From positions 92,002 to 156,001 of the forward strand of contig CAYHBA010000002.1 of assembly GCA_964354755.1 (NCBI GenBank): a stretch of DNA of 64,000 nucleotides. The letters are read 5' to 3'. Positions 19,861 to 37,700 of the stretch are shown piece by piece. Position 1 is the stretch's first letter. Every line of letters begins with the position of its first letter. This DNA comes from an uncultured Thermoplasmata archaeon (GTDB lineage Archaea; Thermoplasmatota; Thermoplasmata; SG8-5). The notes beneath the pieces are model-generated. The model had not been told where the DNA came from and did no database searches. It saw only the letters and a list, made by a program, of their open reading frames with translations. A program made the position numbers and the translations under genes.

Positions 19861-19917
19861 AGGAGGCAGGGATCCTCCGGCAGGGCATCACGCCGGCCAG
19901 GGGCTTCAGGATACATT

Positions 19918-20355: not shown

Positions 20356-20370
20356 GCGCCTTTCGCCCCT

Positions 20371-20406
20371 CAAGTGAATGCGAAAGCCCGGTAATAAGGC
20401 TTTCGT
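20371..20406 (-). promoter_or_regulatory. Shared promoter-like motif copy upstream of the gene starting at 20355
   Basis: Minus-sense reads acgaaagccttattaccgggctttcgcattcacttg, followed by gaggggcgaaaggcgc and then ATG. Confidence 0.5.
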
Positions 20407-20450
20407 AAGCCAGCCCAGTGGTAATTTCGCCTTGGTCTTTGATCTTCGAC

Positions 20451-20972: not shown

Positions 20973-21028
20973 TGCATATGAATTGATTTGAATCTATATA
21001 TAGTTATTATTGACATGTCAATAATGAT

Positions 21029-21055
21029 CCTGTAACAAGGCTTTCGTTTGTTACC
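21029..21055 (-). promoter_or_regulatory. Shared promoter-like motif variant upstream of the pilin-like gene
   Basis: cctgtaacaaggctttcgtttgttacc lies about 60 nt upstream of the start at 20972. Confidence 0.35.
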
Positions 21056-21111
21056 AATCCACAGTCCAAACAGCATCCACTGGGACATGAATCCAAAATA
21101 TCCGAGTATTT

Positions 21112-21199
21112 TTCTTTTAAATTTTCTCCGCTGGCTCGGGCTCTAAAGAAAAATATTCAGCAAAGAAGAAACTCGCCACTCGCCTGCTCGAAAATTCAT
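21112..21199 (-). terminator. T-rich terminator-like element (repeat family 2, copy 2) 3' of the surface-protein gene
   Basis: About 80% identical over 90 nt to the element at 3126-3218. Minus-sense is T-rich. Confidence 0.45.
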
Positions 21200-23215
21200 T
21201 TACCAATTAATTGTCCATATCGTATCCGCAACCACGTGTACCCAGTACCCTTCGCCCGGCTTCATGATGTATGTCGGGCCGGCCTCGGATATTAGGTATG
21301 GTGAGGCAGGGTCGAAGACCTCCACCCGATTCGCCCCTGTACCCCAGAGGGCGTTGGCTACTGTGGTATTATTGTTCAAGGTGGGGAAGCTGACCAGGTT
21401 CCAACCCGCGTAAAGAATGATGCTGGTGGATTGCGGTTCCGCCCCGAAAACTGTCAAGTTGCAGGCCACCGTGGCGTGTAGCCATAAACCCATCGTGTTG
21501 TCGATATAGGTGAGGTCGTTGGCTGTGCCTCCTATTCGGTATGACTTCCAAGGATCCATTTTATCTGTTGGGTCGCACCATTTCACGACATCCCATTTTC
21601 CAGAAATGGAGGACAGTACATTCTCTATTGAGGTACTGGTCATTTCGAAAGGCACAGAGACGAGGTTCCAACCAGCTATAAGTTCGATGGTGCAGACCTG
21701 TGGCAAGGGTTGCCACCGGAACAACGGGTAAGTAATACCCTCCCTCATCCACCAGATGTTTTCGAAGTCCCAGCTTACGTTAGTAAATGTGCTCTGGGTT
21801 TTCATCACGACCGTTGTTTCTCCGGTAGCGTTGCCCGCGGTGCTGTTTTGCCCGCTGGTTTCGACGTCCCAGAAGTTGCCAGTCATCTCATAGTTCCCGC
21901 CTGTGAATATGTCTCCGACAAAGCCTTTGTTCGTTGGATTTGAACCACCATAATAAATCACCTGGCCCGTGGAATAACAGTTGATGATCTTGCCTTGATA
22001 ATTTCTCGCGGCAAACCCACCGAAATACTCATTTGTCCCAGATGAACGTGTCACTGTTCCAGTGGCGTATGAATTTCTAATAGTTCCTAGATAATTCTGA
22101 CTCACTAGTCCGCCAACATACCATACACTTCCACTTACGTTTCCAGTAGCATACGATTTATTAACCGTTCCCCTATTCTGTCCTATTAAACCACCAACAT
22201 TGGATTCTCCAGTTGTGGCTCCAGTGGCATAACAAGCCCTCACTGAGCCCATATTTTCTCCTATTAAGCCACCTATATTATTGAAAGAACCAGTCACTGT
22301 TCCAATGGCGAATGAGTCAATTACAGCGCACCCCCCTAATTCGTTGTAGCCCACGAGTCCTCCCACAATAGAACCACCAATAACATTTCCCATGGCATGT
22401 GAGTTTAAAACCAGGTCTCGGTTTACTCCCACGAGCCCGCCGACACTACCACCGGTACCGCTCACATTTACAATGGCATATGAGTTGTTCACCGTGTCAT
22501 AGTTCGCTCCTATAAGCCCACCGATTCGATGTTTTCCATTCACGGTGCCTGTAGCATGTGAGTTGGCCACAATACCATAGCTGTAACCCACAAGCCCGCC
22601 AATATAATAACTACCAGTTCCACTAACGGTACCTATGGCATATGAATTTGTTATCGTACCCTGATAGTTTTGACCTACGAGCCCGCCAACATACTCGTAT
22701 CCACTCACGGTTCCAGTGCAGTATGAGTTGGTCACTGTATCACAGTTAAATCCCACCAGGCCGCCAACATTGGATCTTCCAGTGATATTGACTTCAATGA
22801 GGCCAACGTTCTTTACGAAACCCCCACTATCAATATATCCGAGGAGTCCTTGATAATTCGTACCCGTTCGGTTGATGTGCAGTCCAGTGATGGTGAAGTT
22901 CTGGCCGTCAAGACTACCGGTAAACCGATTTGGATTTGTTCCAACCGCCACGAAACCTGCGCCACTGTTCCAGTTTATAGTATCGTGCGCGTCAATGTCA
23001 TTCCCCAATGCATAATGTGCCGTTAAGTTCAAACTCATATTTTGCAGTTCCCACACATTCTCAATTATATACGGGTCCTCGACCGTTCCGGAACCCCCAG
23101 CTAAAGCGGTTACTGGTACATCTGAACTCACAACCTCATCCACACATATTCCCACAAACATGCCGCTGAGAAGCATCAGGGCAACGATATAAATTAAGAT
23201 TGACTTCTTCCACAT
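21200..23215 (-). CDS. Secreted surface protein with GLUG-motif beta-helix repeats (VGGLVG.N.G.I.NSYATG) and a duplicated C-terminal beta domain
   Basis: Signal peptide MWKKSILIYIVALMLLSG. More than 12 GGLVG/GGLIG repeats. The C-terminal GWNLVS.P...EAGPTYIMKPGEGYWVHV domain occurs twice. Confidence 0.6.
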   Translation of the reverse strand: MWKKSILIYIVALMLLSGMFVGICVDEVVSSDVPVTALAGGSGTVEDPYIIENVWELQNMSLNLTAHYALGNDIDAHDTINWNSGAGFVAVGTNPNRFTGSLDGQNFTITGLHINRTGTNYQGLLGYIDSGGFVKNVGLIEVNITGRSNVGGLVGFNCDTVTNSYCTGTVSGYEYVGGLVGQNYQGTITNSYAIGTVSGTGSYYIGGLVGYSYGIVANSHATGTVNGKHRIGGLIGANYDTVNNSYAIVNVSGTGGSVGGLVGVNRDLVLNSHAMGNVIGGSIVGGLVGYNELGGCAVIDSFAIGTVTGSFNNIGGLIGENMGSVRACYATGATTGESNVGGLIGQNRGTVNKSYATGNVSGSVWYVGGLVSQNYLGTIRNSYATGTVTRSSGTNEYFGGFAARNYQGKIINCYSTGQVIYYGGSNPTNKGFVGDIFTGGNYEMTGNFWDVETSGQNSTAGNATGETTVVMKTQSTFTNVSWDFENIWWMREGITYPLFRWQPLPQVCTIELIAGWNLVSVPFEMTSTSIENVLSSISGKWDVVKWCDPTDKMDPWKSYRIGGTANDLTYIDNTMGLWLHATVACNLTVFGAEPQSTSIILYAGWNLVSFPTLNNNTTVANALWGTGANRVEVFDPASPYLISEAGPTYIMKPGEGYWVHVVADTIWTINW

Positions 23216-23387
23216 CGTGGATAATAGGAACGTTCTGCTAAATTAACCTTTCCTATGTGATTTATAGTTCATAAAAGAGAAAAAGATGGCCGGTTTCCCC
23301 GCATTCCGAGATTTTAATTCACGTATGAACTAACCTTTAGCCAGCAGAGTCAGATTCAATTCCGCCTTTAATGGACGAATCCAGATA

Positions 23388-25733
23388 CTACCAATCCACA
23401 GTCCATATTGTATCCGTTGGGACATGTACCCAGTACCCTTCGCCCGGCTTCATGATGTATGTCGGGCCGGCCTCCTTGATGTAAGGCGAAACAGAGTCGA
23501 ACGCCTCCACCCTATCCGCTCCCGTGCCCGAGAGAGCCTCTGCGACTGTCATTTCCGAATTCCGGGCCGGGTATCCGACCATGTTCCATCCTGTGTGCAG
23601 AGATATGCTTGTGGATGCGGGCATAATTCCCTCGCCTGCGGTCAGCACCCCGTCCCCGCCGTTGTCGGTGATGTGGAGCCAGATGCCCATGGTATTGTCG
23701 ATCTCCGGCATGTCGTTTGACGATGCCTGCCCTTTCTTATTGAATGATTTCCAGGGGTCCGCAGCATCCTGGGTGTCGAACCACATCGCCCGGTCCCAGG
23801 TCGTGCCGCCGTCTCCATACAATACATCGTTGAACACGGCAGTAATTCTTGTATGGACAGTCAATGGTACGGAAACGAAGGTCCAATAGCCGGTGCCGTC
23901 TCTTGACCGGTTGCTATCTGTATTCACGTCGAAAGTCTTCCAGTTGAACGGCCCTGCTTCCGGCGCAGTGCCGTTGGCAGGAATGCCGACATCATCGGCT
24001 CCGCCCTTCGCGTTCGCGATCCAGTAGAATTTACTCGGCTTTGGGCAGGGATTGGATTCGGGGGTCCAGTCGAACGAGCCATCCACACTTGCATCTGTCC
24101 CGATACAGTTCCAGTTGTCTCCGTGGTTCGTAGAATAAAACAGGTCGATTTCTGTCGGGGTTTCTGTCCAGTTATAGGTGATTGTAATGATTGGGTCGTG
24201 GCCGGCGCCCTGGGGGCCGGTGGCGGTGGCTGTTGAATTTGAATAAACCGTGACGTTTAAAGTATCAATTGAATACAAACCAGTTGTACTTGTAACATTT
24301 AAAGTCACAGTATAGACCCCTATAGATTCATATTTATGAGTTGGAGTAGAACCTATTGCGTCAATATCATTCGTTGGATTACCATCTTGATTAGTATCAA
24401 TATTAGCATTGAAATCCCAACTATAACTAAGTACTTCTGCATTTTTTGCATTATCCCATTGCCAGAGTAGATTTGAACCACCTGCTGTGGTGAACACGTA
24501 TAAAGTTCCATTTGAAGTTGCGCCAGCGTAATAATTTCCATCAAAAGAGCATGAGATATGATTGACAATTCCATTAGTATAAAAAATAGATTCTGGTGTT
24601 CCATTTGCTGGCGTGAATTGATATATTCCTCCATCTTGATTACCGCCAAAGATGTATTGACCATCAGTAGCCATATCTAATGACATACATGCCATACTGG
24701 TCACATGGGTCCAAATTGGAGAAGAACTTGAATTACTGAAAAGTCGAAACCCGTGAGAGGTAGAGGCTCCCCTAGTCTTATACTCTGCAGTGGCAATATA
24801 TTGACCATTATCTGCTGTAACCATCCCGATATGTTTCCCCAAAGATTCTGCAACCCATATACGATTTCCATTGTTATTAAATAACTGTGTATGTTGTAAA
24901 TCGCCTTGTCCCGCTGCAATTTTATTACCATAATAATCTAAAGAAATAGTATAAATTGGACAAAAATAATCAGAATTTTCAGGGAGTATTTTAAAAATGA
25001 AACCTTCTGAAATACCATAATACCGAATTTCATACCAGAATGAGCCTGCGGCAAAGTGAGTACCGTCACCCGAAAATCGAACACTCAATACGGACTGAGG
25101 GAAATCAAAAATATTTATTGGTGATCCTGAATTTGTTTCAAAGAGATAAACTTTACCTACTTTTTCCATTTGAGCTGAAATAGAGAGAAATGTTCCTAGA
25201 GCAATATAATTTCCATCACGAGTCATATCGAAGGCTCTCCGACTTGTTCCATATATGGGATAATTGGTTTGATATGTCCATATCGGTGTACTTTGATTGG
25301 TATTAAAAAAGGAAACATAACCTCTCGATTCCCAAGTATTTGATGGGTCATCATTTTGTGCGGTTGCAAGGTATGTGCCATTTTCAGAAAGAACAACAGC
25401 TACAACTGTTTTTTCAGTGTTAAATGTCCAAAGAGGCTCACTGTTGTTAAGATGAAATAAAGTAATATTTGTTCCCCATCCAATAACAATATAATTACCA
25501 TCCCCAGATATATCTACTACATTAATCGCTTGTCTGTAATTTGGATCATAAGATCCAGTTCCATTGAACTGAACGATTTCATTTACATCTACAAATTGAT
25601 CTGGACCAGCATCAGCTATTGGTGGCAATAAATTATTTATTATATTTTTATCTATGGTTGAAGAAATAACAGTGGGGCTGATGAGAAGAATAACAATTAC
25701 TATTGGTAAGAAAAATGTTCTCATACTTTTCAC
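23388..25733 (-). CDS. Secreted surface protein with beta-propeller repeats, a PKD domain and a C-terminal domain shared with the protein at 21200-23215
   Basis: Signal peptide is present. Propeller blades are YIATA- and YFAAG-type. The PKD-like segment reads TPTHKYESIGVYTVTLNVTSTTG. The last roughly 45 aa are nearly identical to the neighbour at 21200, with a 50-nt identical stretch in the DNA. Confidence 0.6.
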   Translation of the reverse strand: MKSMRTFFLPIVIVILLISPTVISSTIDKNIINNLLPPIADAGPDQFVDVNEIVQFNGTGSYDPNYRQAINVVDISGDGNYIVIGWGTNITLFHLNNSEPLWTFNTEKTVVAVVLSENGTYLATAQNDDPSNTWESRGYVSFFNTNQSTPIWTYQTNYPIYGTSRRAFDMTRDGNYIALGTFLSISAQMEKVGKVYLFETNSGSPINIFDFPQSVLSVRFSGDGTHFAAGSFWYEIRYYGISEGFIFKILPENSDYFCPIYTISLDYYGNKIAAGQGDLQHTQLFNNNGNRIWVAESLGKHIGMVTADNGQYIATAEYKTRGASTSHGFRLFSNSSSSPIWTHVTSMACMSLDMATDGQYIFGGNQDGGIYQFTPANGTPESIFYTNGIVNHISCSFDGNYYAGATSNGTLYVFTTAGGSNLLWQWDNAKNAEVLSYSWDFNANIDTNQDGNPTNDIDAIGSTPTHKYESIGVYTVTLNVTSTTGLYSIDTLNVTVYSNSTATATGPQGAGHDPIITITYNWTETPTEIDLFYSTNHGDNWNCIGTDASVDGSFDWTPESNPCPKPSKFYWIANAKGGADDVGIPANGTAPEAGPFNWKTFDVNTDSNRSRDGTGYWTFVSVPLTVHTRITAVFNDVLYGDGGTTWDRAMWFDTQDAADPWKSFNKKGQASSNDMPEIDNTMGIWLHITDNGGDGVLTAGEGIMPASTSISLHTGWNMVGYPARNSEMTVAEALSGTGADRVEAFDSVSPYIKEAGPTYIMKPGEGYWVHVPTDTIWTVDW

Positions 25734-26049
25734 TTCACCTATAATATGAATGATTATGCATCCTTATAATGTTTTCGTGTAAGCTTACTAAAATTAGATA
25801 ATAAATGGTCATTTTTAGACATTTTAATATGCTGGCACCTGACCACCATTTAGTAAAAATACAAGTTCTTCTCCTATCTGTAATGTAGTAAGTGAACTTC
25901 TGTTTCCAATTAAACGAAATTCTAATCCCCCACAACCTAATCTATTTCTAAACGACTTTAAAATCTTTTCTATTTACTTACGATGACCGCCAAACACTTT
26001 GTTTTTTATGCACATTAATCGGGCATACAGCCCTAGCCAGTAGTCGCTT

Positions 26050-26142: not shown

Positions 26143-26673
26143 CTAGTACTTCCTAAAATCCAGGAACGTCATCCCCTTCCTGGCCCTCTCCCTCTCCTCC
26201 TTCAGATGCTGCTGCAATCCGACCTTCATCACCCGTTCGTGGTGCTTCAGAACCACCGGGTACCTGCCGCGCTGGTATTCCGTCCTCTTGCAGGTCGGGA
26301 ACGTCTCGCACAGAAGGCAGCTCTTCAGCTTCCGCGCTTTCTTGCATTTCATGACCTCGCACCACGGCTCCTTGATGTTCTGGCATCCGGGGCACTTCAT
26401 CTTGGAGAGCCACACAAGCCCTTTGTCCATGTCCCCGAAGTCGAAGTCCACCGAATCCTGGGCCCACAGGCAGTTGCCTTTGGTTGTGCGGGAGAGCTCT
26501 GTGGCCAGTTCGGCCACCCTTCCGTTACCGGTGGGGCACATCTCGCAGAACACGCCGCAGACACCGTATGTATATTCTTGTTTAGGGGTTTTCTTCATGG
26601 CAATCGCTCTCCGCAGTGCTGGCAGAAATCTCTCGCGCATTTGAGGTATCTGCCTTGCCTGGATAGGACCCAT
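26143..26673 (-). CDS. Cys-rich protein, DUF3795-like, possible metal or Fe-S binding
   Basis: Contains CGVFCEMCP, CPGCQ, CEVMKC and CLLCETFPTC. The start could be the internal Met at 26598. Confidence 0.4.
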   Translation of the reverse strand: MGPIQARQIPQMRERFLPALRRAIAMKKTPKQEYTYGVCGVFCEMCPTGNGRVAELATELSRTTKGNCLWAQDSVDFDFGDMDKGLVWLSKMKCPGCQNIKEPWCEVMKCKKARKLKSCLLCETFPTCKRTEYQRGRYPVVLKHHERVMKVGLQQHLKEERERARKGMTFLDFRKY

Positions 26674-26777
26674 CGTAAATCAAGTTTCTTTTTCTTGGGT
26701 GTTTTTTTTGGTAATTGTTTGCCGCACCATGGACATGTATTCGAATCGCATTGCATGTCGCATTCTTCCTTCATCGC

Positions 26778-26813
26778 GTGTGAATGTTAAGTTCTCGTAA
26801 TAAGGTTTTCGTC
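26778..26813 (-). promoter_or_regulatory. Shared promoter-like motif variant upstream of the Cys-rich protein gene
   Basis: gtgtgaatgttaagttctcgtaataaggttttcgtc. Confidence 0.35.
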
Positions 26814-26974: not shown

Positions 26975-29900
26975 TCAACCCAATTCACGCCTGACAATCT
27001 CGACCTTGTAACCGAGTTTGAGCTCCTCGAATGTGCGCAGGGCTTTCCCCAGCATATCCTTGGCTGCAGGAATCCCCTTTTTCTTCATGGCCCGCCCGTA
27101 CTCGAGATAGGTCTCAGCCAGCTCCAGTTTTATCTTCGCGGACGTGAGGACCGTAATCGAGGTCTTGAAATGGTCTTCCGCCTCGGGCCAATTCCCGCGC
27201 CCTGCCTCTATCATCCCCCAGAATCTGTGGGAGATGCCTTCGCCCTCCTTGACGTCCAGCTCCTTCGCCAGTTCAATGGTTTTCTTAACGAATTCCTCGG
27301 CCTCGTCGGACTTCCCCGTCTTAATCAGCAGTTCTCCTTTGGCCTGCAGGATATCGACCATCAGCCTTTTGTTGCCCATCTCCAATGTGGCCTTCTCCGC
27401 TGCCTCTATATTGGCTCTCGCCCCTTCGAAATCGCCGGTCTGGAGCTGAACAAGGGACATGTTGAGCTCCATCATCGCCTCACCAATTTTGTCCCCCAAC
27501 TTCGTAAAGATGTCGAGTGCCCTCCTGTGGAATTCCAGCGACTTTGTATGATCTCCTCGGGTATGGTAAATGACTGCCAGGTTGTTCAGCGTGCTTCCCA
27601 TGCCGCGTGGATGTCCGAGTCTTTGGAAAACTGCGTGGCACCTCTCGTAATTGTCATGAGCCCTGTCGTAATCGCTCATGGATTTGTACACGATCCCCAG
27701 GTTGTTCAGGGCGACGCCGATGGATAATGTGTCCCCCAGCTTCTCGAAGGTCTTCAGGCTGCGCTCGAACACCTCCAGAGCTTCGGCATACCGGTCCCTG
27801 TCCGCCAGGATATGCCCGATGCTGTTGAGCGCGATTCCGGTTCCCCTGAGGTAGCCGATCCGCTCGAACTCCTCCAAAGCTTTATGGAAATTCACGAGTC
27901 CGCGATCGTAATCGCCGATGTCTACGTATAGCTGCCCCATCCTGTGGAGCACATCCGCGACGTCCTTCTCGGTCCCGCTGAGTTTCTGGAATATCTCCAG
28001 AGCCCTATTCTCTTTGGATATGGCCTCTTCGTACAATCCTTTATGTTCCTGGACAGCGCCGATTGCAGACAGTATCCTGGCGAATTCTACCCCTTCCCCA
28101 GCGGCGACCAGCACCCTCGCCTTCTCAAGCTCGTCGGCCACCCTGTCGTATTCCCCTCTCGTCGCATATATGGAGGATACCTTCCTATGAACCCTGGCTA
28201 TCACTTCCGGGTCGTCGCTGAGGTCCTTGACCCTCTCAAAGGCAGTCTTCGCCTCGTCGAGCCTGCCTGTGATTTCGTAAACTTCTCCCATTTCCTCCAG
28301 CAGCCTCGCGAGCTCCGCCCCCCGTTTCCGCCCATCCATTTCCATGAGCTCAAGCGCGTAGTTGCTGTACCGCAGGGTTTCCTTGTTCGCATATTGGGCC
28401 TTTGCAAGCTCGATTGCCCTCCTGAGGTTCGGCAAGGCCTTGTTCGCATCCCTGGCCATGTAGAAATGGTATCCGGCTTCGGCGACAACCTCGTCTGATG
28501 CGCCGTAGAGGTCCGTGATAGAATCACCCACCATCCCGTGGTACTCCCTTCTCAGCTCTCCGGGCAGGCCGCTGTAAAGCACTTCCCGTATCTTCACATG
28601 GCTGAAGGCGTAATTCCTCTCCATGGAGACAATAAGTCCGTGAGACCTCTCTATCTCGCTGAGGTTCTTCAGCAGCTCGATCTTTTTCACCTCAGCCACT
28701 TTACTCAAAACATCCGACGTGAACACGTCGCCGATGACCGAAGCCGGCTCCAGGATGAGCATCTGGTCTTTCGGTAGCCTCGCGAGCCTCCTGGATATCA
28801 CATCGTGGATTTTCACGGGGAGGTCGATGGTGTCCGGCCTTTTTGTTAGGCTCCAGGCGCCGTCCTTGTGGACCAGCGCCCCCTCCCCTTTCAATAAATT
28901 GATCACTTCGACTGCGAAGAGAGGGTTCCCCTGCGTTTCCCTCCAAAGGAAATCCACGAACTCGTCTCTGCCATCTACTTTGCCCAGGGTCGCGCCGACC
29001 AGCCCGGTCACAGCATCCCTCCCGAGGTTCCGCAGCTCGACCCGTTCCAGCAAGCCCTCGCCGCTCATGAGCTGTATGGCCTCCTTCAGCTGGTGCATCT
29101 TGCCGTCCCATGACGCCAGTATGTCCTCGGCCCTGTAGGTTGCAAGCATGAAGAGCCTTGAAGCCCTAGTGTTCCTGGAGATGTAATGCAGCAATGCCAG
29201 CGTCGACGGGTCTGCCCACTGGAGGTCGTCTATGAAGAGCAGAATCGGGCGCGCCTTGGTCTCCCTCTCCAATCCCTTCAAGACATTCTCGAAGATGCTG
29301 TTCTGCTTCGATTTGGGGTCCCCCTTCGCCCAGTCTATGCCGTCGAACCTCTCCGAGTCGAACATCTCCTTCAACGAGTCCTTGGCTCCTGTGAATTCGT
29401 CCACCAGTCCATCGAAATGCACTAACTTCCCGCCAAACCTGGCCTCCAGTTCCGCGAGAGTTTGCTGCAGATCGCCAAGCAGCGCCTCGTTCTCCCTCCC
29501 CTTGTAAATAGCCGCCAGGCTCGCGTACCGCCCGTGAATGCAGGAAATGTTGAAATCTCCGTAGCCGAGCCTGGACACATCCCCCTCGGGAAGCCTCCCC
29601 ATCTGTTTCATCGTGTCCTTGATGAACTCGTTGACTGCGGTGAGCATTCCGGAGAAAATGTCGATGTCTATGCCGCTTCCCTCCCGCTCTTGCTTCGAAA
29701 GGACGATGCCGGTCTGCGCGATGAGTAAAACTGTCTCGAGCCTCGGCGGTACCTCCAGGGTCACGAGGTGCTCCAGCCCTCCCGAAGCCAGCAGCTCCCT
29801 CATGGGCAAGAACGGCGTCATGCATCTGCTGAGGCACCATCCTCTCATCACCTTGAACCCCATCGAAGAAGCATTATGGATGCACTCCTCTGCGAGCCTT

Positions 29901-30040
29901 GTCTTGCCCACACCTGCTTCCCCAGCGATGAAGATGGTCGAGCCCCTGCCTGCCATCGCGTTGGTCAGGGATTGGTTGAGCTGGTTCAATTCCATATCTC
30001 GCCCGATAAGTTCCGGCTGTTGCAGGGCTGATTCTTCCAT
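26975..30040 (-). CDS. STAND-type ATPase with C-terminal TPR repeats and a Roadblock/LC7-like domain inserted between Walker A and Walker B
   Basis: N-terminus ELIGRDMEL. Walker A FIAGEAGVGKTRL. Walker B LLFIDDLQWAD lies about 220 aa later. The insert at aa 95-205, DIDIFSGMLTAVNEFIKD...VSRLGYGDFNISCIHGRYASLAAIYKG...ELEARFG, aligns with the modules of the giant protein. More than 10 TPR units follow. Confidence 0.75.
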   Translation of the reverse strand: MEESALQQPELIGRDMELNQLNQSLTNAMAGRGSTIFIAGEAGVGKTRLAEECIHNASSMGFKVMRGWCLSRCMTPFLPMRELLASGGLEHLVTLEVPPRLETVLLIAQTGIVLSKQEREGSGIDIDIFSGMLTAVNEFIKDTMKQMGRLPEGDVSRLGYGDFNISCIHGRYASLAAIYKGRENEALLGDLQQTLAELEARFGGKLVHFDGLVDEFTGAKDSLKEMFDSERFDGIDWAKGDPKSKQNSIFENVLKGLERETKARPILLFIDDLQWADPSTLALLHYISRNTRASRLFMLATYRAEDILASWDGKMHQLKEAIQLMSGEGLLERVELRNLGRDAVTGLVGATLGKVDGRDEFVDFLWRETQGNPLFAVEVINLLKGEGALVHKDGAWSLTKRPDTIDLPVKIHDVISRRLARLPKDQMLILEPASVIGDVFTSDVLSKVAEVKKIELLKNLSEIERSHGLIVSMERNYAFSHVKIREVLYSGLPGELRREYHGMVGDSITDLYGASDEVVAEAGYHFYMARDANKALPNLRRAIELAKAQYANKETLRYSNYALELMEMDGRKRGAELARLLEEMGEVYEITGRLDEAKTAFERVKDLSDDPEVIARVHRKVSSIYATRGEYDRVADELEKARVLVAAGEGVEFARILSAIGAVQEHKGLYEEAISKENRALEIFQKLSGTEKDVADVLHRMGQLYVDIGDYDRGLVNFHKALEEFERIGYLRGTGIALNSIGHILADRDRYAEALEVFERSLKTFEKLGDTLSIGVALNNLGIVYKSMSDYDRAHDNYERCHAVFQRLGHPRGMGSTLNNLAVIYHTRGDHTKSLEFHRRALDIFTKLGDKIGEAMMELNMSLVQLQTGDFEGARANIEAAEKATLEMGNKRLMVDILQAKGELLIKTGKSDEAEEFVKKTIELAKELDVKEGEGISHRFWGMIEAGRGNWPEAEDHFKTSITVLTSAKIKLELAETYLEYGRAMKKKGIPAAKDMLGKALRTFEELKLGYKVEIVRRELG

Positions 30041-30156
30041 GAGGGAGACCTTTGGAAGGCAATGAGGTTGATTGTTAAAATGATTTCTAGCTTTAATTGA
30101 GGAAAACGGGTCAATCCCCGCTCTCCAAGGTTATCGCTCAGGCATGGACCGCTGGC

Positions 30157-30924
30157 CTACATCGGCCTCAGGGTTCCGGCGAACACCTGCCATGCCAGCG
30201 CCGATTTCGCGACCAGGCTCAGTATGATGTACATGCGCTCGCCATGCAGGTAGTCCTTCCACTTCCCGGCTTTCTTGTACTGCAGGGCCATGTTGAGCGC
30301 GAAGATGTTGAAGAACACGGCGATCGAGATGAATATCCAATACACGAAGTCAGGCGGGTTGGCCCTGAGCAGGTATATGGCGATGACGACCCACGGAACA
30401 GCCCCGGCAAAGCAGCCGAAGATGTAGTCTGTCCAATCGACCTTCTTCCTTCCCTGGTTGTGCTTCTCCATCGTGTAGCCGAAGAAGATCATTACCGCGT
30501 TCAGCGAGAAGGCCATGATGAGGCTGCCTATGTCGTAGATGCCGACCAGCATCGCAACGACCACAATCATGACTGACGCGCTCAGGGAGTATTCGGCCCA
30601 CCTGTACGGGTTCATCCCCTTCTTCAGGTTGGCGACGTACTTGCGGTAGAAGACTGTCGAAATCAGGAAATGCGCGCCTGCCGAGATGAACAGGAAGAGG
30701 GCGACAACCGGCCCAATCCTGAGGTTGAAGAGGGTCTCGGAGACATGGTCGAGGCTCTGGGTTGCTGTATTGTACGTCAGGTAAAGCCGGGTCACAGGCA
30801 GGGCGAACGAGTTGCTCAGCAGCAGCATCGCAATTCCCTGGACGAGGTGGATGACGCCCATTGTCAAGTTCAGGTTCCTCAGCTTCTTGAATCTCGAATC
30901 ATCTTCGGGCATGGGGGCTAGCAT
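30157..30924 (-). CDS. Probable heliorhodopsin (7-TM; Schiff-base Lys in the last helix)
   Basis: 255 aa with 7 predicted TM helices. N-terminus reads RFKKLRNLNLTMGVIHLVQGIAMLLLSNSFALPVT. TM7 reads SLVAKSALAWQVF, which is heliorhodopsin-like. Confidence 0.55.
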   Translation of the reverse strand: MLAPMPEDDSRFKKLRNLNLTMGVIHLVQGIAMLLLSNSFALPVTRLYLTYNTATQSLDHVSETLFNLRIGPVVALFLFISAGAHFLISTVFYRKYVANLKKGMNPYRWAEYSLSASVMIVVVAMLVGIYDIGSLIMAFSLNAVMIFFGYTMEKHNQGRKKVDWTDYIFGCFAGAVPWVVIAIYLLRANPPDFVYWIFISIAVFFNIFALNMALQYKKAGKWKDYLHGERMYIILSLVAKSALAWQVFAGTLRPM

Positions 30925-31022
30925 CTGCCTCTGAAATATATATTATCCCCCTGAATTAACAGGGCCGGACAAACACCCGAACCCTTAATATTTATTATTG
31001 CGTTGCAGCTCCCGGTGATGCA

Positions 31023-31451
31023 TTGGCAACCAGAATCCAGATCGTATTCGACTGCGCCGATCCAGCGGCCCTCGCCCGGTTCTGGGCCCAAGCCCTCCAT
31101 TACAAAGTCCAGGACCCGCCAACCGGGTTCGGCTCCTGGGCCGAATACCTCGCCGCGCAGGGAGTCCCAAAAAAGGATTGGAACTGCGCCAACGCGATAG
31201 TGGACCCCCAGGGTGTGGGGCCACGCATATTCTTCCAGAGGATGCCAACTCCAAAGCCGAAAAAGAACAGGCTGCACATAGACATCAACGCCAGCACGGG
31301 AGCCGCGCCGGAAGAGCAGAGGAAGAAAGTCAGCGCAGAGGTTAAGCGACTGGTCAAACTCGGCGCCAGCAAGCAAAAGGAGTGGGAGGAGGACGGCGAG
31401 TACTGGGTCGTGATGCTGGACCCTGAAAAGAACGAGTTCTGCGTGCAGTGA
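31023..31451 (+). CDS. VOC/glyoxalase-family protein
   Basis: 142 aa with a glyoxalase-like betaalphabetabetabeta N-terminal pattern IQIVFDCADPAALARFW. Confidence 0.5.
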   Translation: MATRIQIVFDCADPAALARFWAQALHYKVQDPPTGFGSWAEYLAAQGVPKKDWNCANAIVDPQGVGPRIFFQRMPTPKPKKNRLHIDINASTGAAPEEQRKKVSAEVKRLVKLGASKQKEWEEDGEYWVVMLDPEKNEFCVQ

Positions 31452-32272
31452 TTATTAACATCTCCGATATTTTTAATAACCCGGACCGCTATCGGGCATC
31501 CATGTCCCCCCTGATCTGGATACTCCTGGCCACAGTCCTCGTCAGCCTGCTGTCCTTCGTGGGCGTGGTCACGCTCGCGCTCTCCCCCAAGACCCTGAGG
31601 AAGATTCTGCTGGCCCTGGTCGGGCTCTCCGCCGGGACACTGATCGGCGGCGCCTTCCTCCACCTGATTCCCGAGGCTCTCACCGAGATGGAGGACATCG
31701 TGGGTACAAATAGATCTCAGGACACGGTGATGCTGATGGTCATAGTCGGCTTTGTCATATTCTTCATACTGGAGAAGCTGCTGTGGCGCCACTGCCATGA
31801 GAAGGACTGCAAGATCCACACCTTCGTCTACCTCAACCTTTTCGGCGACGGCATACACAACTTCATCGACGGCCTCATCATCGCGGCCGGGTTCCTTGCG
31901 AGCTACGAGATCGGCCTGGTGACCACTCTGGCTGTCGCTTTCCACGAGATTCCCCAGGAAATAGGGGATTTTGGAGTGCTCCTGCACGGCGGCATCCCCC
32001 GGAAGAAAGCCCTCGCATACAATTTCATCACGGCGATAACGGCCATAATCGGCGGCATACTGGGCTACTTACTCATACCCCATATCGGCAACTTCGAGGT
32101 CTACATCCTGCCGTTCGCGGCTGGCGGTTTCCTGTACATCGCTGCCGCGGACCTCATCCCGGAGCTGCATAAGGAGAAGCGCGTTTCCAGGACTGTTCTG
32201 GCATTTGCAATGTTCCTGGTGGGCATAGCCCTAATGTGGGCCATGAAATATATTCTCGGCGGGGCAGTCTGA
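31448..32272 (+). CDS. zupT: ZIP-family metal transporter (ZupT-like)
   Basis: Contains the HEIPQEIGDF motif and about 8 TM helices. It overlaps the neighbouring genes by 4 nt on each side. Confidence 0.75.
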   Translation: MIINISDIFNNPDRYRASMSPLIWILLATVLVSLLSFVGVVTLALSPKTLRKILLALVGLSAGTLIGGAFLHLIPEALTEMEDIVGTNRSQDTVMLMVIVGFVIFFILEKLLWRHCHEKDCKIHTFVYLNLFGDGIHNFIDGLIIAAGFLASYEIGLVTTLAVAFHEIPQEIGDFGVLLHGGIPRKKALAYNFITAITAIIGGILGYLLIPHIGNFEVYILPFAAGGFLYIAAADLIPELHKEKRVSRTVLAFAMFLVGIALMWAMKYILGGAV

Positions 32273-32676
32273 TGGCTTCCAAGAACGGGACCAGAATTGT
32301 CTCCCTCAGCCTGCCCGAAGCCACACTAGGCGACATGGATAAGGCAGTCCAGGACATAGGTTACACCAGCCGGTCCGAGATGGTCAGGGACGCAGTGAGG
32401 GCCTTCCTCAGAGAGAAGGAGGAACTGGCCGGCCTGAAGGGTCATGTGCACGGGGTCCTCTTCCTGATTTATTGCCATGAATGCGCCGCCCAGGTGATGG
32501 AGCTGAGGCACAGACACAAGGCCATATTCAAATCCATGAATCATGCCGATTTCGACGGCGGGGACGAATGCTGCGAGGTTCTCATGTTCTGCGGCGAAGC
32601 AGACGAAGTAAAGGACTCATACAACCAGCTTTCCGCACTCGTGGGCGTGAAAGAAGCCAGGATTTTCCTGGCCTGA
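32272..32676 (+). CDS. nikR: NikR-like ribbon-helix-helix metal-responsive regulator
   Basis: RHH N-terminus RIVSLSLPEATLGDMDKAVQDIGYTSRSEMVRDAVRAFL, plus a His/Cys-rich C-terminal metal-binding domain. Confidence 0.65.
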   Translation: MASKNGTRIVSLSLPEATLGDMDKAVQDIGYTSRSEMVRDAVRAFLREKEELAGLKGHVHGVLFLIYCHECAAQVMELRHRHKAIFKSMNHADFDGGDECCEVLMFCGEADEVKDSYNQLSALVGVKEARIFLA

Positions 32677-32720
32677 ATGCGAACCACATCCTTTTATCGC
32701 ACTTCAGATTTGCAGGGGCC

Positions 32721-33914
32721 ATGGATTTTCTGCCTGACTACGGAGACACCCGCGACCCGGGTGTCAGGGCCAGATACGGCAAGCTGGAAGCCACGGTGGG
32801 CCTCGGGGGCAACATGCTTGTGTTCGTCGGCAAGCTGGCCCTTGCCCTGATTGTATCGAGCATGGCCATCCTGGGCGATTCCCTGAACCATCTCATGGAC
32901 ATTGCCGTCTCCGGTGTCATTCTCTACTCCTTCATGATATCATCAAAACCGGCGGATGAACACCACCCGTACGGGCACGGGAGGGCAGAATCAATACTGG
33001 CGATTTTGGTCTCATTCCTTGTCATCGCGATGGGCGTTCTGGTCATTCACGAAGCCCTGTCCAGTCTTGACAATCCGAGCATAGACGCGGACCTTTACGC
33101 GGTGCTGCTGATACTGGCCTTCACGTGCGTCAAGGTATTTCTGGCTGCGTTCGCCTTCTCTGTGGCGCGCAAGATAGACAGCAGCGCGATACGGGCCGAT
33201 GCTTGGAACCATCTCTCGGACTCGCTGATTTCCATAGCGGTCGCGGTCGGAGTTGGCGTCACCGTGATGTTTCCCGACTACCTGATACTGGATCCCATTC
33301 TCGCGGTCGGCATAGGACTTTTCGTGGTAGGCGTGGGCTCCAAGCTGACGTATGACTCGGCAAAGAGCCTCATGGGAACGGCACCCGACAAAGCGACGCT
33401 GGAGGACGTGGACAAATGCGCCAGGAGCGTGTCCGGCGTCATGGACGTCCACCGCATCGAGATACATGAATACGGTGCCTTCAAGGCCATATCGATGCAC
33501 GTCATGGTGTCTGAGTCCATGGGCGCGGTGCAGGCCCATGACATTGCCGAGAAGGTGGAGAAATGCGTACAGGACAAGTTCAGGACAAGGCCGCTTGTAC
33601 ACATTGACCCGGTAAAGAGCCACTGCGAGGAGTGCGAGCTGGCCATGATAAAGGATTTGGCAAGGGATTTCCCAGCCGTAATATCCGTGCATGAGGCGAC
33701 AATTCTCCACGGGGCCAATGGAGCGGTTGTGGACATGCATGTGCTGGTGGACAGCAAGAAAAGCATTGAGGAGGGTCACGCTCTGGTCCACGACATAATG
33801 GCTGAAGTGGAGAGGAAATTCCCGGGCCACAGGGCGGACATACATCTCGAGCCCTGCTCCGGCGACTGCCACACATGCAGGGAGGAATGCGACAGCCGAG
33901 GTGCAGAACGATGA
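32721..33914 (+). CDS. Cation diffusion facilitator (CDF) efflux transporter with a Cys-rich tail
   Basis: Six TM helices. Contains HPYGHGRAE and a cytoplasmic C-terminal domain. The start was trimmed to the Met at 32721. Confidence 0.75.
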   Translation: MDFLPDYGDTRDPGVRARYGKLEATVGLGGNMLVFVGKLALALIVSSMAILGDSLNHLMDIAVSGVILYSFMISSKPADEHHPYGHGRAESILAILVSFLVIAMGVLVIHEALSSLDNPSIDADLYAVLLILAFTCVKVFLAAFAFSVARKIDSSAIRADAWNHLSDSLISIAVAVGVGVTVMFPDYLILDPILAVGIGLFVVGVGSKLTYDSAKSLMGTAPDKATLEDVDKCARSVSGVMDVHRIEIHEYGAFKAISMHVMVSESMGAVQAHDIAEKVEKCVQDKFRTRPLVHIDPVKSHCEECELAMIKDLARDFPAVISVHEATILHGANGAVVDMHVLVDSKKSIEEGHALVHDIMAEVERKFPGHRADIHLEPCSGDCHTCREECDSRGAER

Positions 33915-34762
33915 TATCTCTGCCCAGAGAGCAACACTGGAAAGCGGAAAAGCCCCTGGAAGCCGTTCCGTTCAACACCCTTTTTGCTAGCACAGTCGTG
34001 GACAATGTCCTTACCGGCCAGATATACGTGGACAATGTTCAGAATCCGTCTGTATTCCTCGTCGCCCACCCTTATGGGATGTCTTTGCTTTTCGGAAGAA
34101 CCGGCGATGCGGGGTTCAACAGTTCACTGCGCGAGTACATGGCGGATGCCAAGGGAATCCGCAAGGCAATGGAGTGGCTGCAGGTGCATCCGGCCGAATG
34201 GAAGCCTGTGCTGGGGGAACTGCTGGGCTCCGACCTGGTAAGAAAGGAATGCCCTGCGGAAATGCCGTCAGCCGCTCCGGACGACCCGGGCAAGGTGATT
34301 GAGTACACCAGGGTGAATTTCCTGTTCAACAAGGACAGATACATCGCGTTCGCCGGCCGATACTCCGCCCCGCCGGAAATCATTGTAAAGACAGACGCAA
34401 AGCTGTTCCATGACATCCAGGGCCAGGTAATCCCGAAGCATTTCTGGAAGGACGTAGACCATTTCCTCGGCGAAGGTGTCGGGTTCACCCTCATGGCAGA
34501 AGGCAGGGCCGCATCCACGGCTTTCTGCGCGTTCGCGAAGGATAACATGCTCGAGATTGGCATAGAAACGCCTCCGGAATTCCGCGGTAAAGGCTATGCG
34601 GTCCATGCCTGCAAGGCCCTGATTGACTATTGCATGGAAAATGGCTACGAGCCAATCTGGTCCTGCAGGCTGGAGAACGCCGTCTCATTCAACCTCGCCC
34701 AAAAGCTGGGGTTCGAACCCGTGCTGTATGTTCCGTATTACCAGCTTGTCAGCGCCCCGTGA
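33911..34762 (+). CDS. GNAT-family N-acetyltransferase
   Basis: C-terminal acetyl-CoA-binding motif FRGKGYAVHACKALIDYC. Overlaps the CDF stop (ATGA). Confidence 0.55.
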   Translation: MISLPREQHWKAEKPLEAVPFNTLFASTVVDNVLTGQIYVDNVQNPSVFLVAHPYGMSLLFGRTGDAGFNSSLREYMADAKGIRKAMEWLQVHPAEWKPVLGELLGSDLVRKECPAEMPSAAPDDPGKVIEYTRVNFLFNKDRYIAFAGRYSAPPEIIVKTDAKLFHDIQGQVIPKHFWKDVDHFLGEGVGFTLMAEGRAASTAFCAFAKDNMLEIGIETPPEFRGKGYAVHACKALIDYCMENGYEPIWSCRLENAVSFNLAQKLGFEPVLYVPYYQLVSAP

Positions 34763-37700
34763 GGCCGTTGGCAGATTTTGACTCGGCAAGGGCGGCTTCG
34801 GACTTTCTCAGCCATATGCCCATCCCCATCCTTCGGAACGACTCCCTTGCCTTCTCCAGGAGCTTGGTTCCGGCCTCAGCCTCGCCAGACATCCTCAGGC
34901 AAACCCCCTCGTCATAGTCCATCATGGCCTGCAGCGTGGTGTCGCCCACATCTGCCAGCAATTCCCGCGCCCGGGCGAAAGTCTCCAGGGCCGACATGAA
35001 ATCGCCCCTGTCCCTGTGAATGGTGGCGAGCACATAAGTCGACGCGCCCACCTCCCTCTTGGCCCCGAGCTCGTTCGACAGGGCCAGCGCCAGGTCGACA
35101 TATTCTGTCGCCTTCTCGAAATTTCTGCACTTCCTGTACGAATCTGCGAGTCCATAATAATCATAGATCATGATGTGCTGGTCGCCTATCTCCCTGCATA
35201 TCTCCACGCTCTCCAGGTGATGCCGTATGCTCTTCTCCAGCTGGTCCAGGTCCTGGTATACGTACCCCAAGCTGCTCAGGGACCAGGCTATGCCGTTCCT
35301 GTCCCCGCTCATCCTGTAGAGCTCGAGGCCCCTGAGCTGATATTCGAGCGCCTTCTCGGTATCTCCCTTGGTGTGGAGAAGATTGCCTATGTTGTCGAGG
35401 GTGCTTGCCGTGCTGCTCTTGTCCCCGACCATCTCTCCGTACTCGAGGCCCTCCATGAAATATACCAGGGCTTCGTCCAGCCGGCCTGTCTCCATGTACA
35501 CGACCGCAATATTGTTCAGCGTGCTCTCCTTGCCGGTGTCATCGCCTATATCCTTCTGAATGACCAGCGCATTCTGATAATGCTCCAGAGCCCTGTCATA
35601 GTCCCCACGGAACCACCATGTTATACCTATGAGGCGGTGCGCGTTCGCAATCTCCTTCCTCTCCTTCAGCCGTGTCGCGTCCGTCATTGCCTGGCACAGG
35701 ATTTCCAGGGCTCTGTCATAGCTCCCCATCCTGATGAGGCTCAGGGCCATGGATGTGATAAGCCCGCATCTCACAGGATCGTCGCTGTCCCCCAGAATGT
35801 CGAGTCCTGCCTGGGCCGCTGCGATGCCGCGCTCGTATTTGCTGGCCCTCTCGAAGGTCAGCGCCATCTTCCTTTGCAGGTCCGCCTTCCTTGCGGGCTC
35901 CTTCGCATTCTCGAATACTCTGGAATAGGAGGCAATCGCCCTGTCGCAGTCGCCGACCACGGTGTACAGATCGCCGAGCCATTCGCTGATGCGCCCTGTC
36001 TCGGCCATGTCCTTCGCAATCCCCAGGGCAAGGCTGTAGAATGCTATGGCTTCCTCGTTGGCGTAATTCTTTCTGGCTTGCTCCGCGGCGATGTTCAGGT
36101 ACACGGCGGCCTTAGGATCCTTCGCCTCCAGGAAATGCCGTGCCAGCTCGCCAGCCATCTCCCCCTCCCTTCCGGCGAACAGCTGCTCGTAGCTATGGGC
36201 GACAGTCCTGTGGTATTCCGCCTTAAGCTCGCCGCTTATGCCCGCGTAAATGACGTCCCTTACCTTGCTGTGGTCGAACCTGTATCCGCCTTCTCCGGAA
36301 TGAATCAGCCTGTGCGTCTTCTCGATATCGTTCAGGTTCTTCAGGAGCTGCATCCTGTTCACGCCCATTGAAAGGCCCACGACATCGCTGCCGAACCTCT
36401 CCCCCACGACGCTGGCGCATTCCAGAACCTCGTGCTGCTGCTTCTGGAGACGGTTCAACCTCCTCTGAACAACATCGAAAATCTTGGAGGGCAGGTGCAG
36501 CTCGCTCAGCGGCTTGTCCATGACCCATGCATCTCCCTTGCGCAGGACTGACCCCTCGTCCACCAGCAGCCGCAATATTTCCAGCACGAAGAACGGATTC
36601 CCCTCTGCCTCGGCATGTATCCTGACGAATAGTTCCCGCGGAAACTCGGCGCAGCCAAGGGCGGTTGAGACTATGCCTTGCGTCCCGTCCTGTCCAAGGC
36701 GGTACAGCTTTATGTCCCTGAACAGAGACTCCCTGCTCATGTCCTGCATGATGGTCTCAAGGGCATGCGGAGTTCCGTCCGGTCTGGGCATGATGTCCTC
36801 GGGGCGGTAGGTGGCCAGCAAGAATACCCTGCTGTTCCGTGTGTTCCTGGACAGGTAATGGAACAGGCCCAGCGTGGTCGGGTCGGCCCACTGGACATCG
36901 TCAAGGAAAAGCACGACAGGCGACTCTGCGGAAGCCCTCTGCAGGCCCAGCAACACGCTGTCGAACATGTTCTCCAGTTTCAGCTTGGGGTCTTCCCGGA
37001 CAAACTCCCCGGCGTATTTGGCTGAATTGACAAGCCTGGAAAGTCTGTCGCAGAGCCAGCCGGTTTCAGCATGGTCGTACAGGTCCGGGTTGAGTTTGGA
37101 TTTCAGTTCGTCAAGCTCCCTCTTCATGTCCTCAATCAGGAATTCGTTCTCCTCCCCCTCGATGACAGCGGCCAGTGACATCCTTCCCCTGGTCTGAATC
37201 ACTATGTTGTACCCGGAATGTCCTATCTTGCTCAGGCCCACATCGCAGCTGTTCTTTCCCATCATGCCCAGGGAGTCTGAGATGAACGAGGAAACGGCCT
37301 TCAGCATCGCCGCAAATATGTCCGCGTCCATGCCGGTCTTCGTGCGCTCTGCCTGGCCGTACAGCATACCGGCGTCGTTCAGGATGTAGGCGGAAAGAAT
37401 CCTCGGCGGAGCCCTCTCCTGCATTAGGCCGAGCATTCCCGCCCTTCTCAGCGCCTCCTTGACCGGCATCAGCGGCTCCAGGCATTCTGGAAGGCACCAG
37501 CCCCTCAGCACGGCGGCATGGCGCTTCTCTGCGATGCCCAGCATTTCGCTGACCAGCCTGGTTTTGCCTATGCCGGCTTCCCCGGAAACGAACAGGGTCA
37601 CGCCGCTTCCGCCAAAGGCCAGGTCCATGGACCCCGTGAGTCTGGCTATCTCCGGCTGCCTGCCTATGAGTTCAGGCTGCAGCAGACGATTTTCATCCAT
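34749..37700 (-). CDS. STAND-type ATPase with TPR repeats and a Roadblock/LC7-like insert; paralog of the protein at 26975-30040
   Basis: N-terminus ELIGRQPEIARL. Walker A LFVSGEAGIGKTRL. Insert DADIFAAMLKAVSSFISDSL...LSKIGHSGYNIVIQTRGRMSLAAVIEG. Walker B VLFLDDVQWAD. TPR repeats follow. Confidence 0.75.
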   Translation of the reverse strand: MDENRLLQPELIGRQPEIARLTGSMDLAFGGSGVTLFVSGEAGIGKTRLVSEMLGIAEKRHAAVLRGWCLPECLEPLMPVKEALRRAGMLGLMQERAPPRILSAYILNDAGMLYGQAERTKTGMDADIFAAMLKAVSSFISDSLGMMGKNSCDVGLSKIGHSGYNIVIQTRGRMSLAAVIEGEENEFLIEDMKRELDELKSKLNPDLYDHAETGWLCDRLSRLVNSAKYAGEFVREDPKLKLENMFDSVLLGLQRASAESPVVLFLDDVQWADPTTLGLFHYLSRNTRNSRVFLLATYRPEDIMPRPDGTPHALETIMQDMSRESLFRDIKLYRLGQDGTQGIVSTALGCAEFPRELFVRIHAEAEGNPFFVLEILRLLVDEGSVLRKGDAWVMDKPLSELHLPSKIFDVVQRRLNRLQKQQHEVLECASVVGERFGSDVVGLSMGVNRMQLLKNLNDIEKTHRLIHSGEGGYRFDHSKVRDVIYAGISGELKAEYHRTVAHSYEQLFAGREGEMAGELARHFLEAKDPKAAVYLNIAAEQARKNYANEEAIAFYSLALGIAKDMAETGRISEWLGDLYTVVGDCDRAIASYSRVFENAKEPARKADLQRKMALTFERASKYERGIAAAQAGLDILGDSDDPVRCGLITSMALSLIRMGSYDRALEILCQAMTDATRLKERKEIANAHRLIGITWWFRGDYDRALEHYQNALVIQKDIGDDTGKESTLNNIAVVYMETGRLDEALVYFMEGLEYGEMVGDKSSTASTLDNIGNLLHTKGDTEKALEYQLRGLELYRMSGDRNGIAWSLSSLGYVYQDLDQLEKSIRHHLESVEICREIGDQHIMIYDYYGLADSYRKCRNFEKATEYVDLALALSNELGAKREVGASTYVLATIHRDRGDFMSALETFARARELLADVGDTTLQAMMDYDEGVCLRMSGEAEAGTKLLEKARESFRRMGMGIWLRKSEAALAESKSANGLTGR

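Follow-up and report, generated by a model that had tools for sequence, protein, structure and literature searches.

A TaHeR-like heliorhodopsin gene of a probable Methanomassiliicoccales-related archaeon, with neither a retinal pathway nor a conserved partner gene nearby

INTRODUCTION

Heliorhodopsins (HeRs) are retinal-binding, light-sensing membrane proteins of inverted orientation, and the family was described in 2018. Here we analyze a stretch of 64,000 nucleotides (nt) from an archaeal contig (CAYHBA010000002.1, positions 92,002 to 156,001; hereafter the window), in which a minus-strand open reading frame (ORF) had been flagged as a probable HeR gene by a sequence-only reading. The closest known system is TaHeR, from Thermoplasmatales archaeon SG8-52-1 (PDB 6IS6, 7CLJ and 7U55). 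In TaHeR, E108 acts as counterion of the retinal Schiff base, and the R105/E150 pair caps the Schiff-base cavity (PMC9385722). Listed hydrophobic residues of the protein include Y109, A113, M116, F203 and F206 (PMC9529153), and those lining its lateral fenestration have been compiled in a preprint (bioRxiv 10.1101/2025.11.27.691015). This fenestration was proposed to be the entry route for exogenous retinal (Shihoya et al. 2019, as quoted in PMC9385722). TaHeR has also been reported to bind Zn2+ (Hashimoto 2020, as cited in PMC8612252).

No transport of ions had been seen in earlier work on HeRs. This agrees with the hydrophobic extracellular half of TaHeR and of 48C12, the actinobacterial founding member (PDB 6SU3, 6SU4 and 6UH3), and the slow photocycle suggested a sensory role (PMC9448325). 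Some HeRs do transport protons; the hallmark of these viral proteins is Glu at position 191 of V2HeR3 (TaHeR I199) together with Trp at position 195 (TaHeR F203), both on TM6, and their extracellular half contains polar residues (PMC9448325). For three HeRs a partner has been shown: glutamine synthetase for AbHeR, where basic loop residues bind the enzyme (PMC9529153), a photolyase for TfHeR (PMC9769723) and the ABC exporter OmrDE for OcHeR (PMC11109279). Genes that recur beside HeR genes fall into ten published classes, namely the glutamine and NAD+ synthetases, photolyase, MerR, TerC, ABC transporter, SDR, alpha/beta hydrolase, DUF2177 and DUF2238 (PMC11109279), and glyoxalase-domain genes lie near some actinobacterial HeRs (Bulzu et al., PMC8612252).

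RESULTS

The flagged ORF encodes a heliorhodopsin

We regard it as practically certain that the flagged ORF encodes a heliorhodopsin. In a hidden Markov model (HMM) scan, PF18761 (Heliorhodopsin) was the only significant Pfam match, covering profile positions 1-242 of 242 with E = 4.8e-101 and 337.6 bits (gathering score, 26.7). The NCBIfam equivalog NF038020, 'heliorhodopsin HeR', was matched just as completely (positions 1-244 of 244; 352.9 bits versus a cut-off of 100; E = 8.6e-106), and the type-1 rhodopsin profile PF01036 gave no match at E<=1. By sequence, the nearest solved structure is 6IS6 (TaHeR), with E = 2e-97 and 62.7% identity over 249 columns that contain a single one-residue indel; HeR 48C12 comes next (E ~1e-65).

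Seven transmembrane (TM) segments had been proposed from the sequence, and seven hydrophobic segments were indeed found in a 19-residue hydropathy scan. An AlphaFold2 model, built on 42 homologues and numbered for a 251-residue form of the protein (see below), likewise contains seven long helices (mean pLDDT 91.7, pTM 0.87). It also shows a β-hairpin in the A-B loop (strands 37-48/53-65) and, within the B-C loop, a short helix (89-97), both of which have been described as HeR-specific (PMC9385722). When the model was compared with known structures using Foldseek, it superposed on 6IS6 with a TM-score of 0.96 and a root-mean-square deviation of 1.5 Å. The TM-score was ~0.9 for 48C12 (47-48% identity) and only ~0.6 for type-1 rhodopsins (10-17% identity). 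The profiles, the TaHeR alignment and the superposition all bear out the original assignment, the best match is not to an unrelated seven-TM family, and nothing argues against membership of the HeR family. The protein belongs to the archaeal TaHeR-like clade.

No zinc-ribbon or MORN fusion is present: the HeR domain, the only one matched in Pfam, begins at residue 15 of the 255, and the N-terminal 16 residues contain no Cys, as the CxxC...CxxC ribbon of Znf-HeR proteins would need. Some relatives, such as P0098 (P numbers denote related proteins), carry PF13717. The gene is an ordinary, already known member of its family, which curated HMMs name and whose exact sequence is already public.

Functional residues and predicted topology

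To score conservation, we aligned the query and its 120 best relatives from the database (121 sequences), using the numbering of the 255-residue ORF. The codons of interest are as follows.

30205..30207, minus strand: Lys240, retinal Schiff-base lysine (TaHeR K238; 6IS6 alignment; Lys in 121/121)
30592..30594, minus strand: Glu111, single Schiff-base counterion (TaHeR E108; 6IS6/7CLJ alignment; Glu in 121/121)
30847..30849, minus strand: His26 (TaHeR H23; 6IS6 alignment; His in 121/121)
30670..30672, minus strand: His85 (TaHeR H82; His in 120/121, Asn in the remaining sequence)
30298..30426, minus strand: TM5/TM6 stretch lining the lateral fenestration above the retinal ring (residue mapping to TaHeR)

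The lysine that had been placed in the Schiff-base position of the last helix is thus Lys240, which aligns with TaHeR K238 and is conserved in every homologue. Likewise, the Glu and both His residues expected around the Schiff base are present and invariant or nearly so. 7CLJ, the E108D mutant of TaHeR, differs at exactly the Glu111 column. Arg108 and Glu153, which correspond to TaHeR R105 and E150, show no variation among the 121 sequences, and the functional residues that are invariant are H26, S81, R108, E111, S115, E153, G174, F205, N206, S236, K240, W245 and Q246.

The lateral fenestration between TM5 and TM6, above the β-ionone ring, is predicted to be kept. Its residues Tyr167, Cys171, Gly174, Phe205, Asn206 and Ala209 are the counterparts of TaHeR Y164, C168, G171, F203, N204 and A207; three of them (G174, F205 and N206) are invariant and the other three (Y167, C171 and A209) vary conservatively. 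Hydrophobic residues of TaHeR are also retained, with Y112, A116, M119, F205 and F208 standing for Y109, A113, M116, F203 and F206. V2HeR3 Glu191 and Trp195 are replaced by Ile201 and Phe205 in the query; across the 121 sequences, the first of these positions holds I/M/L and the second F.

To predict the orientation in the membrane, we counted Lys and Arg residues. Eighteen lie in the N-terminus and the B-C, D-E and F-G loops, versus three in the A-B, C-D and E-F loops and the C-terminus; the three loops assigned to the cytoplasm carry 14. By the positive-inside rule, the N-terminus is therefore predicted to lie in the cytoplasm and the C-terminus outside, which is the inverted topology of HeRs.

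TaHeR and the query agree in every named functional residue: H23, H82, R105, E108, E150 and K238 of TaHeR are H26, H85, R108, E111, E153 and K240 in the query, and all six fenestration residues are shared. The last 30 residues at the C-terminus are also almost the same. The proteins differ at ~37% of positions, mostly lipid-facing and loop residues, and the E-F loop of the query is one residue shorter. The host lineages differ as well (Methanomassiliicoccales-like for the query versus the SG8-52-1 lineage). No functional difference from TaHeR, whose crystal structure is available at 63% identity, is predicted. 48C12 has the same fold, the same Lys, Glu, His and Arg-Glu set and the fenestration, but is bacterial and more distant, with Phe rather than Tyr at the first aromatic position of the fenestration. 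AbHeR, TfHeR and OcHeR belong to the same family, and their basic cytoplasmic loops are seen in the query too; these proteins are encoded in operons with their partners, whereas the query gene appears monocistronic and has no such partner nearby. V2HeR3 and the other proton-transporting viral HeRs share the Schiff-base Lys and the Glu counterion, but V2HeR3 has E191 and W195 in place of Ile201 and Phe205, and the query retains the hydrophobic extracellular half and the fenestration motif. Finally, the type-1 rhodopsins (PF01036; bacteriorhodopsin, sensory rhodopsins) share with the query the number of helices, seven, and a Lys on helix 7 that binds retinal, but differ in having an Asp pair instead of a single Glu counterion and an orientation opposite to that predicted here.

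Start codon, promoter and selection

Features of the gene itself are listed below.

30157..30924, minus strand: the flagged heliorhodopsin ORF (255 codons, beginning with ATG; TAG stop at 30157-30159)
30160..30912, minus strand: likeliest true coding sequence (251 amino acids (aa), beginning at Met5 of the flagged ORF)
30934..30946, minus strand: TATA-like box ATAATATATATTT (minus-strand reading), centred ~28 nt upstream of the Met5 ATG

The ORF is real as flagged, and both peptides quoted from its translation, LRNLNLTMGVIHLVQGIAMLLLSNSFALPVT near the N-terminus and SLVAKSALAWQVF in the last helix, are present. A protein length of 255 aa had been given; this holds for the ORF, but the product more likely starts at Met5 (ATG at 30912) and has 251 aa. 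Public records (NCBI and Logan) give 251 aa for the identical protein, P0001, and relatives P0002-P0004 (94, 88 and 84% identity) have the same length. An exact look-up of the 255-aa product found no match in public data, because the call on record begins at Met5; a cluster search with the identical protein yielded no name for it. When upstream regions were aligned, the ATG at 30924 had no counterpart in the 84% relative (locus L003), while the Met5 ATG was conserved, and the A/T-rich TATA-like box was kept at the same position in L003 and in the 94% relative (L002). These observations suggest that Met5 is probably the true start. A separation of ~28 nt is the usual archaeal TATA-to-start distance. 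From this promoter geometry, we infer that the mRNA is leaderless or near-leaderless and that the product has 251 aa.

Over the first 60-75 nt downstream of the stop codon, which include a short T-run, the window and the 94% relative show no conservation. By contrast, the last 55 nt before the ATG of the next gene are almost identical and contain a TTTTAA box (30075-30080). On these grounds, we infer a monocistronic HeR gene and, for the gene downstream of it, a separate promoter.

Selection on the gene was gauged from the ratio of nonsynonymous to synonymous substitution rates (dN/dS, Nei-Gojobori), which is 0.079 versus the 94% relative (dS 0.43) and 0.106 versus the 84% relative (dS 0.95). 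Such values show that the gene is in use and under strong purifying selection. Together with the E-values of the two family profiles, they exclude a chance ORF. No second rhodopsin was found in the window by tblastn.

Genomic neighbourhood of the heliorhodopsin gene

Directly downstream lies a large gene for a STAND-like protein, and upstream, in divergent orientation, are genes for a Glyoxalase_6 protein, a ZIP transporter, a NikR-like regulator, a CDF transporter, a GNAT protein and a second AAA_16-TPR paralogue (Pfam). Those that matter most here are the following.

26975..30040, minus strand: AAA_16 + TPR (STAND-like) gene, 1021 aa (Pfam), 116 nt downstream of the HeR gene and on the same strand
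31448-32272, plus strand: ZIP transporter (Pfam), in a metal-homeostasis cluster (31448-33914) divergent from the HeR gene
32236-32676, plus strand: NikR-like RHH/NikR_C regulator (Pfam), same cluster
32481-33914, plus strand: CDF cation-efflux protein (Pfam), same cluster

This arrangement is kept in L001, an identical Logan contig, and in L002, on a 633-kb JGI contig. In L003, the neighbours are entirely different (Imm5-like, ADH, PAS and others). We searched 85 HeR loci with tblastn and found the AAA_16-TPR, Glyoxalase_6, ZIP, NikR and DUF3795 genes of the window only in L001 and L002; the CDF gene also matched L016, L028 and L072, and the GNAT gene gave one weak match, in L019. CDF genes lie within 4 kb of the HeR gene in L016, L028, L072 and L081, numbers that are not above possible chance, and in L002 the CDF gene is reduced to a 68-aa remnant. 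Recurrence is essentially limited to the 94-100% identical loci L001 and L002, and we therefore rejected the window neighbours as conserved HeR partners. The downstream AAA_16-TPR gene, absent from L003 and from 80 further HeR loci, probably has a transcript of its own and is not a conserved partner. Conservation of the Glyoxalase_6 gene, which is divergent from the HeR gene, does not reach beyond close strains. None of the ten published neighbour classes (PMC11109279) occurs within the window.

The sequence-only reading noted no retinal-biosynthesis gene, and our Pfam scans, run on ORFs that cover 89% of the window, agree with this. Among the ORFs scanned, none matched BCD/Blh, SQS_PSY (phytoene synthase), Amino_oxidase (phytoene desaturase) or lycopene cyclase; the ORFs left out of the scan are all <100 aa.

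Host and other features of the window

HeRs were said to be known from Thermoplasmatota, and an attribution to this phylum fits. Among species representatives, the best match is the HeR of Methanomassiliicoccales archaeon UBA147, at 84% identity, followed by that of a Thermoplasmatota metagenome-assembled genome (MAG) at 64%. Named relatives at 64-67% identity are annotated 'heliorhodopsin HeR' and come from MAGs of Thermoplasmata, Methanomassiliicoccales or Thermoplasmatota. Pfam matches in the window include archaeal information-processing genes (TFIIB, L7Ae, L24e, Gar1-like, TiaS, SRP54 and PolD small-subunit-like) and an archaeal pilin gene. Hence, the host is probably a Methanomassiliicoccales-related Thermoplasmatota archaeon.

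Other features of the window are as follows.

3266-4219, minus strand: Ras/Roc-type small GTPase (PF00071, E = 1.3e-29; PF08477, E = 5.3e-24)
4367-8986: CARDB/DUF5915 protein, 1539 aa, adjoining the Ras/Roc-type GTPase gene
9260-9330, plus strand: tRNA-Cys (GCA) (Rfam and tRNA scans)
11538-13883, plus strand: AAA_16 + TPR paralogue (Pfam)
16846-18951: CapR/DUF4379 protein, in the low-GC island
21200-23215: GLUG-motif protein, in the low-GC island
23388-25733: WD40/PKD beta-propeller protein, in the low-GC island
26143-26673, minus strand: Cys-rich DUF3795 protein, 176 aa (called so in L001 and L002)
34749-37700, minus strand: AAA_16 + TPR paralogue (Pfam)

Three AAA_16 + TPR (STAND-like) paralogues lie within 26 kb, and such genes are frequent in the genome. 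The two larger ones are 41% identical over the N-terminal 560 aa, with the AAA_16 match split in two. In the copy at 26975-30040, a segment of ~145 aa, Roadblock-like by eye, separates Walker A from Walker B; it had no Pfam match at E<=1.

An island of low GC content (0.34-0.50 versus a background of ~0.56) spans ~17000-26000. This region differs in L002 and, besides the three proteins listed, holds several ORFs without a family; it is probably a variable, horizontally acquired island of surface proteins. As the island ends ~4 kb from the HeR gene, we considered horizontal acquisition of the latter as well. This was rejected, since the GC content of the HeR gene (0.56) equals the local genomic background and matches the host.

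At 26143-26673, the minus-strand DUF3795 ORF is probably the real gene; a competing longest-ORF pick (26206-26790, plus strand, 194 aa) had no Pfam match. Scans of the window with Rfam and tRNA models found the tRNA-Cys gene only, and nothing near the HeR locus. This tRNA gene overlaps the listed start of the PolD small-subunit-like ORF (9308-10927), which therefore probably starts further downstream.

Neighbours of heliorhodopsin genes in other archaea

In 20 of the 85 HeR loci fetched, the HeR gene is adjoined by a gene of the SOUL heme-binding family (PF04832, E = 1e-50). These loci come from Methanobacteriaceae, Bathyarchaeia, Conexivisphaerales and Thermoproteota, and the SOUL gene mostly lies immediately upstream and divergent of the HeR gene, with a gap of 170-500 nt. 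Four examples are given here.

L033:8867-9523, minus strand: SOUL gene
L014:9196-9771, minus strand: SOUL gene
L022:3819-4337, minus strand: SOUL gene
L040:9077-9733, minus strand: SOUL gene

The window contains no SOUL homologue. A full-text literature search found no link between SOUL proteins and HeRs, and none is mentioned in the main text of Bulzu et al. The SOUL protein could be a partner of HeR that handles a ligand or chromophore or that counters photo-oxidative stress.

Several other genes recur near archaeal HeR genes: a Pyridox_ox_2 flavoprotein (8 loci), radical SAM/SPASM (5 loci), DUF6512 (5 loci) and the UV endonuclease UvdE (5 loci). Abhydrolase_5, found in 7 loci, matches the published alpha/beta-hydrolase group, and a multi-pass membrane protein of ~260 aa with no Pfam match is present in 6. 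Loci with such recurrent neighbours include L022, L023, L045, L047, L053, L057, L068 and L070.

DISCUSSION

We consider it likely, by analogy with characterized HeRs, that this protein is a slow-cycling, non-transporting photosensor that uses scavenged retinal and signals to a partner protein. Lys240 on helix 7 would bind retinal as a protonated Schiff base whose single counterion is Glu111. A Schiff-base cavity that faces the cytoplasm would be surrounded by two groups of residues, His26/His85 and Arg108/Glu153. The hydrophobic extracellular half is retained as in TaHeR, and the side opening between TM5 and TM6 is predicted to be. Judging from work on TaHeR and 48C12, the pigment should absorb green light near 540-550 nm, light should convert all-trans retinal to the 13-cis form with the Schiff-base proton moving only within the protein, and the photocycle should be slow, lasting seconds, and free of ion transport. 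If no ions are moved, the output would be a conformational signal, presumably passed through the strongly basic cytoplasmic loops to a partner protein. Since the window shows no retinal pathway, uptake from the environment via the side opening, as proposed for TaHeR, is the likeliest source of the chromophore.

Parts of this model differ in strength. That the protein binds retinal and is photoactive seems very likely, and we are equally confident that it does not transport ions. Signalling to a protein partner is favoured to a lesser degree, as is an exogenous source of retinal.

Several points weigh against the photosensor model. The mechanism is drawn from homology only. No partner can be named because the gene has no conserved neighbour: the published HeR neighbours are absent from the window, and the genes that are present are not conserved beyond 94% identity. 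The absence of retinal genes holds for these 64 kb only, and the host was assigned from the similarity of its HeR and from archaeal markers found in the window. Moreover, a role that depends on light would itself call for an explanation if the host's habitat is dark, anoxic sediment.

A different main role would be light harvesting, in which an external carotenoid bound at the fenestration serves as a second antenna. A 2025 preprint (bioRxiv 10.1101/2025.11.27.691015) puts forward this 'two-antenna' hypothesis and finds the carotenoid-binding motif in 91.3% of HeRs, including TaHeR. The motif is intact here, with the opposed aromatic pair Tyr167/Phe205, Gly174, the small residues Cys171/Ala209 and Asn206, and the lack of carotenoid genes in the window fits an exogenous pigment. 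However, the hypothesis is based on docking and sequence motifs, and the preprint does not demonstrate carotenoid binding for any prokaryotic HeR. It also gives no use for the captured energy in a protein that does not transport ions. We therefore think light harvesting unlikely as the main role, although a second antenna would complement a sensor rather than exclude it.

One could also imagine that the HeR feeds a light signal into the gene products next to it, either the downstream STAND-type AAA_16-TPR NTPase or the divergent ZIP/NikR-like/CDF cluster. The latter idea echoes the reported binding of Zn2+ by TaHeR, and either route, if true, would be a new HeR output pathway in a Methanomassiliicoccales-type archaeon. 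Both are weakened by the distribution of the adjacency, which is confined to strains of at least 94% identity and has gone at 84%. For the STAND protein, the downstream gene appears to have its own promoter, and with three AAA_16-TPR paralogues in the window, adjacency by chance is plausible. Such an output is thus quite improbable.

Retinal itself might be dispensable, with the protein working without it or persisting as a relic in a host unable to produce the chromophore and perhaps living without light or oxygen. The nearest genomes are those of Methanomassiliicoccales-type archaea, a lineage known as anaerobic, and the known β-carotene cleavage step needs O2. The 64-kb window holds no retinal or carotenoid gene, as this idea would predict. 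But the strong constraint seen in dN/dS (0.08-0.11) contradicts a relic, and invariance of the Schiff-base Lys, the counterion and the pocket residues in 121 homologues, mostly from similar archaea, would be unexpected if the chromophore were dispensable. TaHeR sets a further precedent: its host also lacks a retinal pathway, yet the protein binds added retinal (PMC9385722). We hold a relic or retinal-free protein to be very improbable.

Least probable of all is light-driven or light-gated transport of protons in the manner of giant-virus V2HeR3. In its favour, proton-transporting HeRs are known, and the positions Glu229 and Gln215 of the hydrogen-bond network on the cytoplasmic side are present here. 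Against it, the hallmark Glu (E191) is replaced by Ile201, with I/M/L throughout the 121 sequences of the clade, and Phe205 takes the place of the gate Trp. Hydrophobic residues of TaHeR are retained in the extracellular half, and the query has the fenestration motif that the transporting viral subfamily lacks. Earlier work on HeRs also found no ion transport, in line with the hydrophobic extracellular halves of TaHeR and 48C12 (PMC9448325).

The gene is one more TaHeR-like heliorhodopsin from a Thermoplasmatota archaeon without a retinal pathway nearby, and it offers little beyond a correct annotation. It repeats a known puzzle, namely what a conserved photoreceptor is retained for, and to what it signals, in archaea that are presumed anaerobic and retinal-less. 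The locus has no conserved neighbour that would make this puzzle more tractable. A SOUL gene lies beside the HeR gene in a quarter of the other archaeal loci examined, and this association may prove more useful as a lead than the gene described here.

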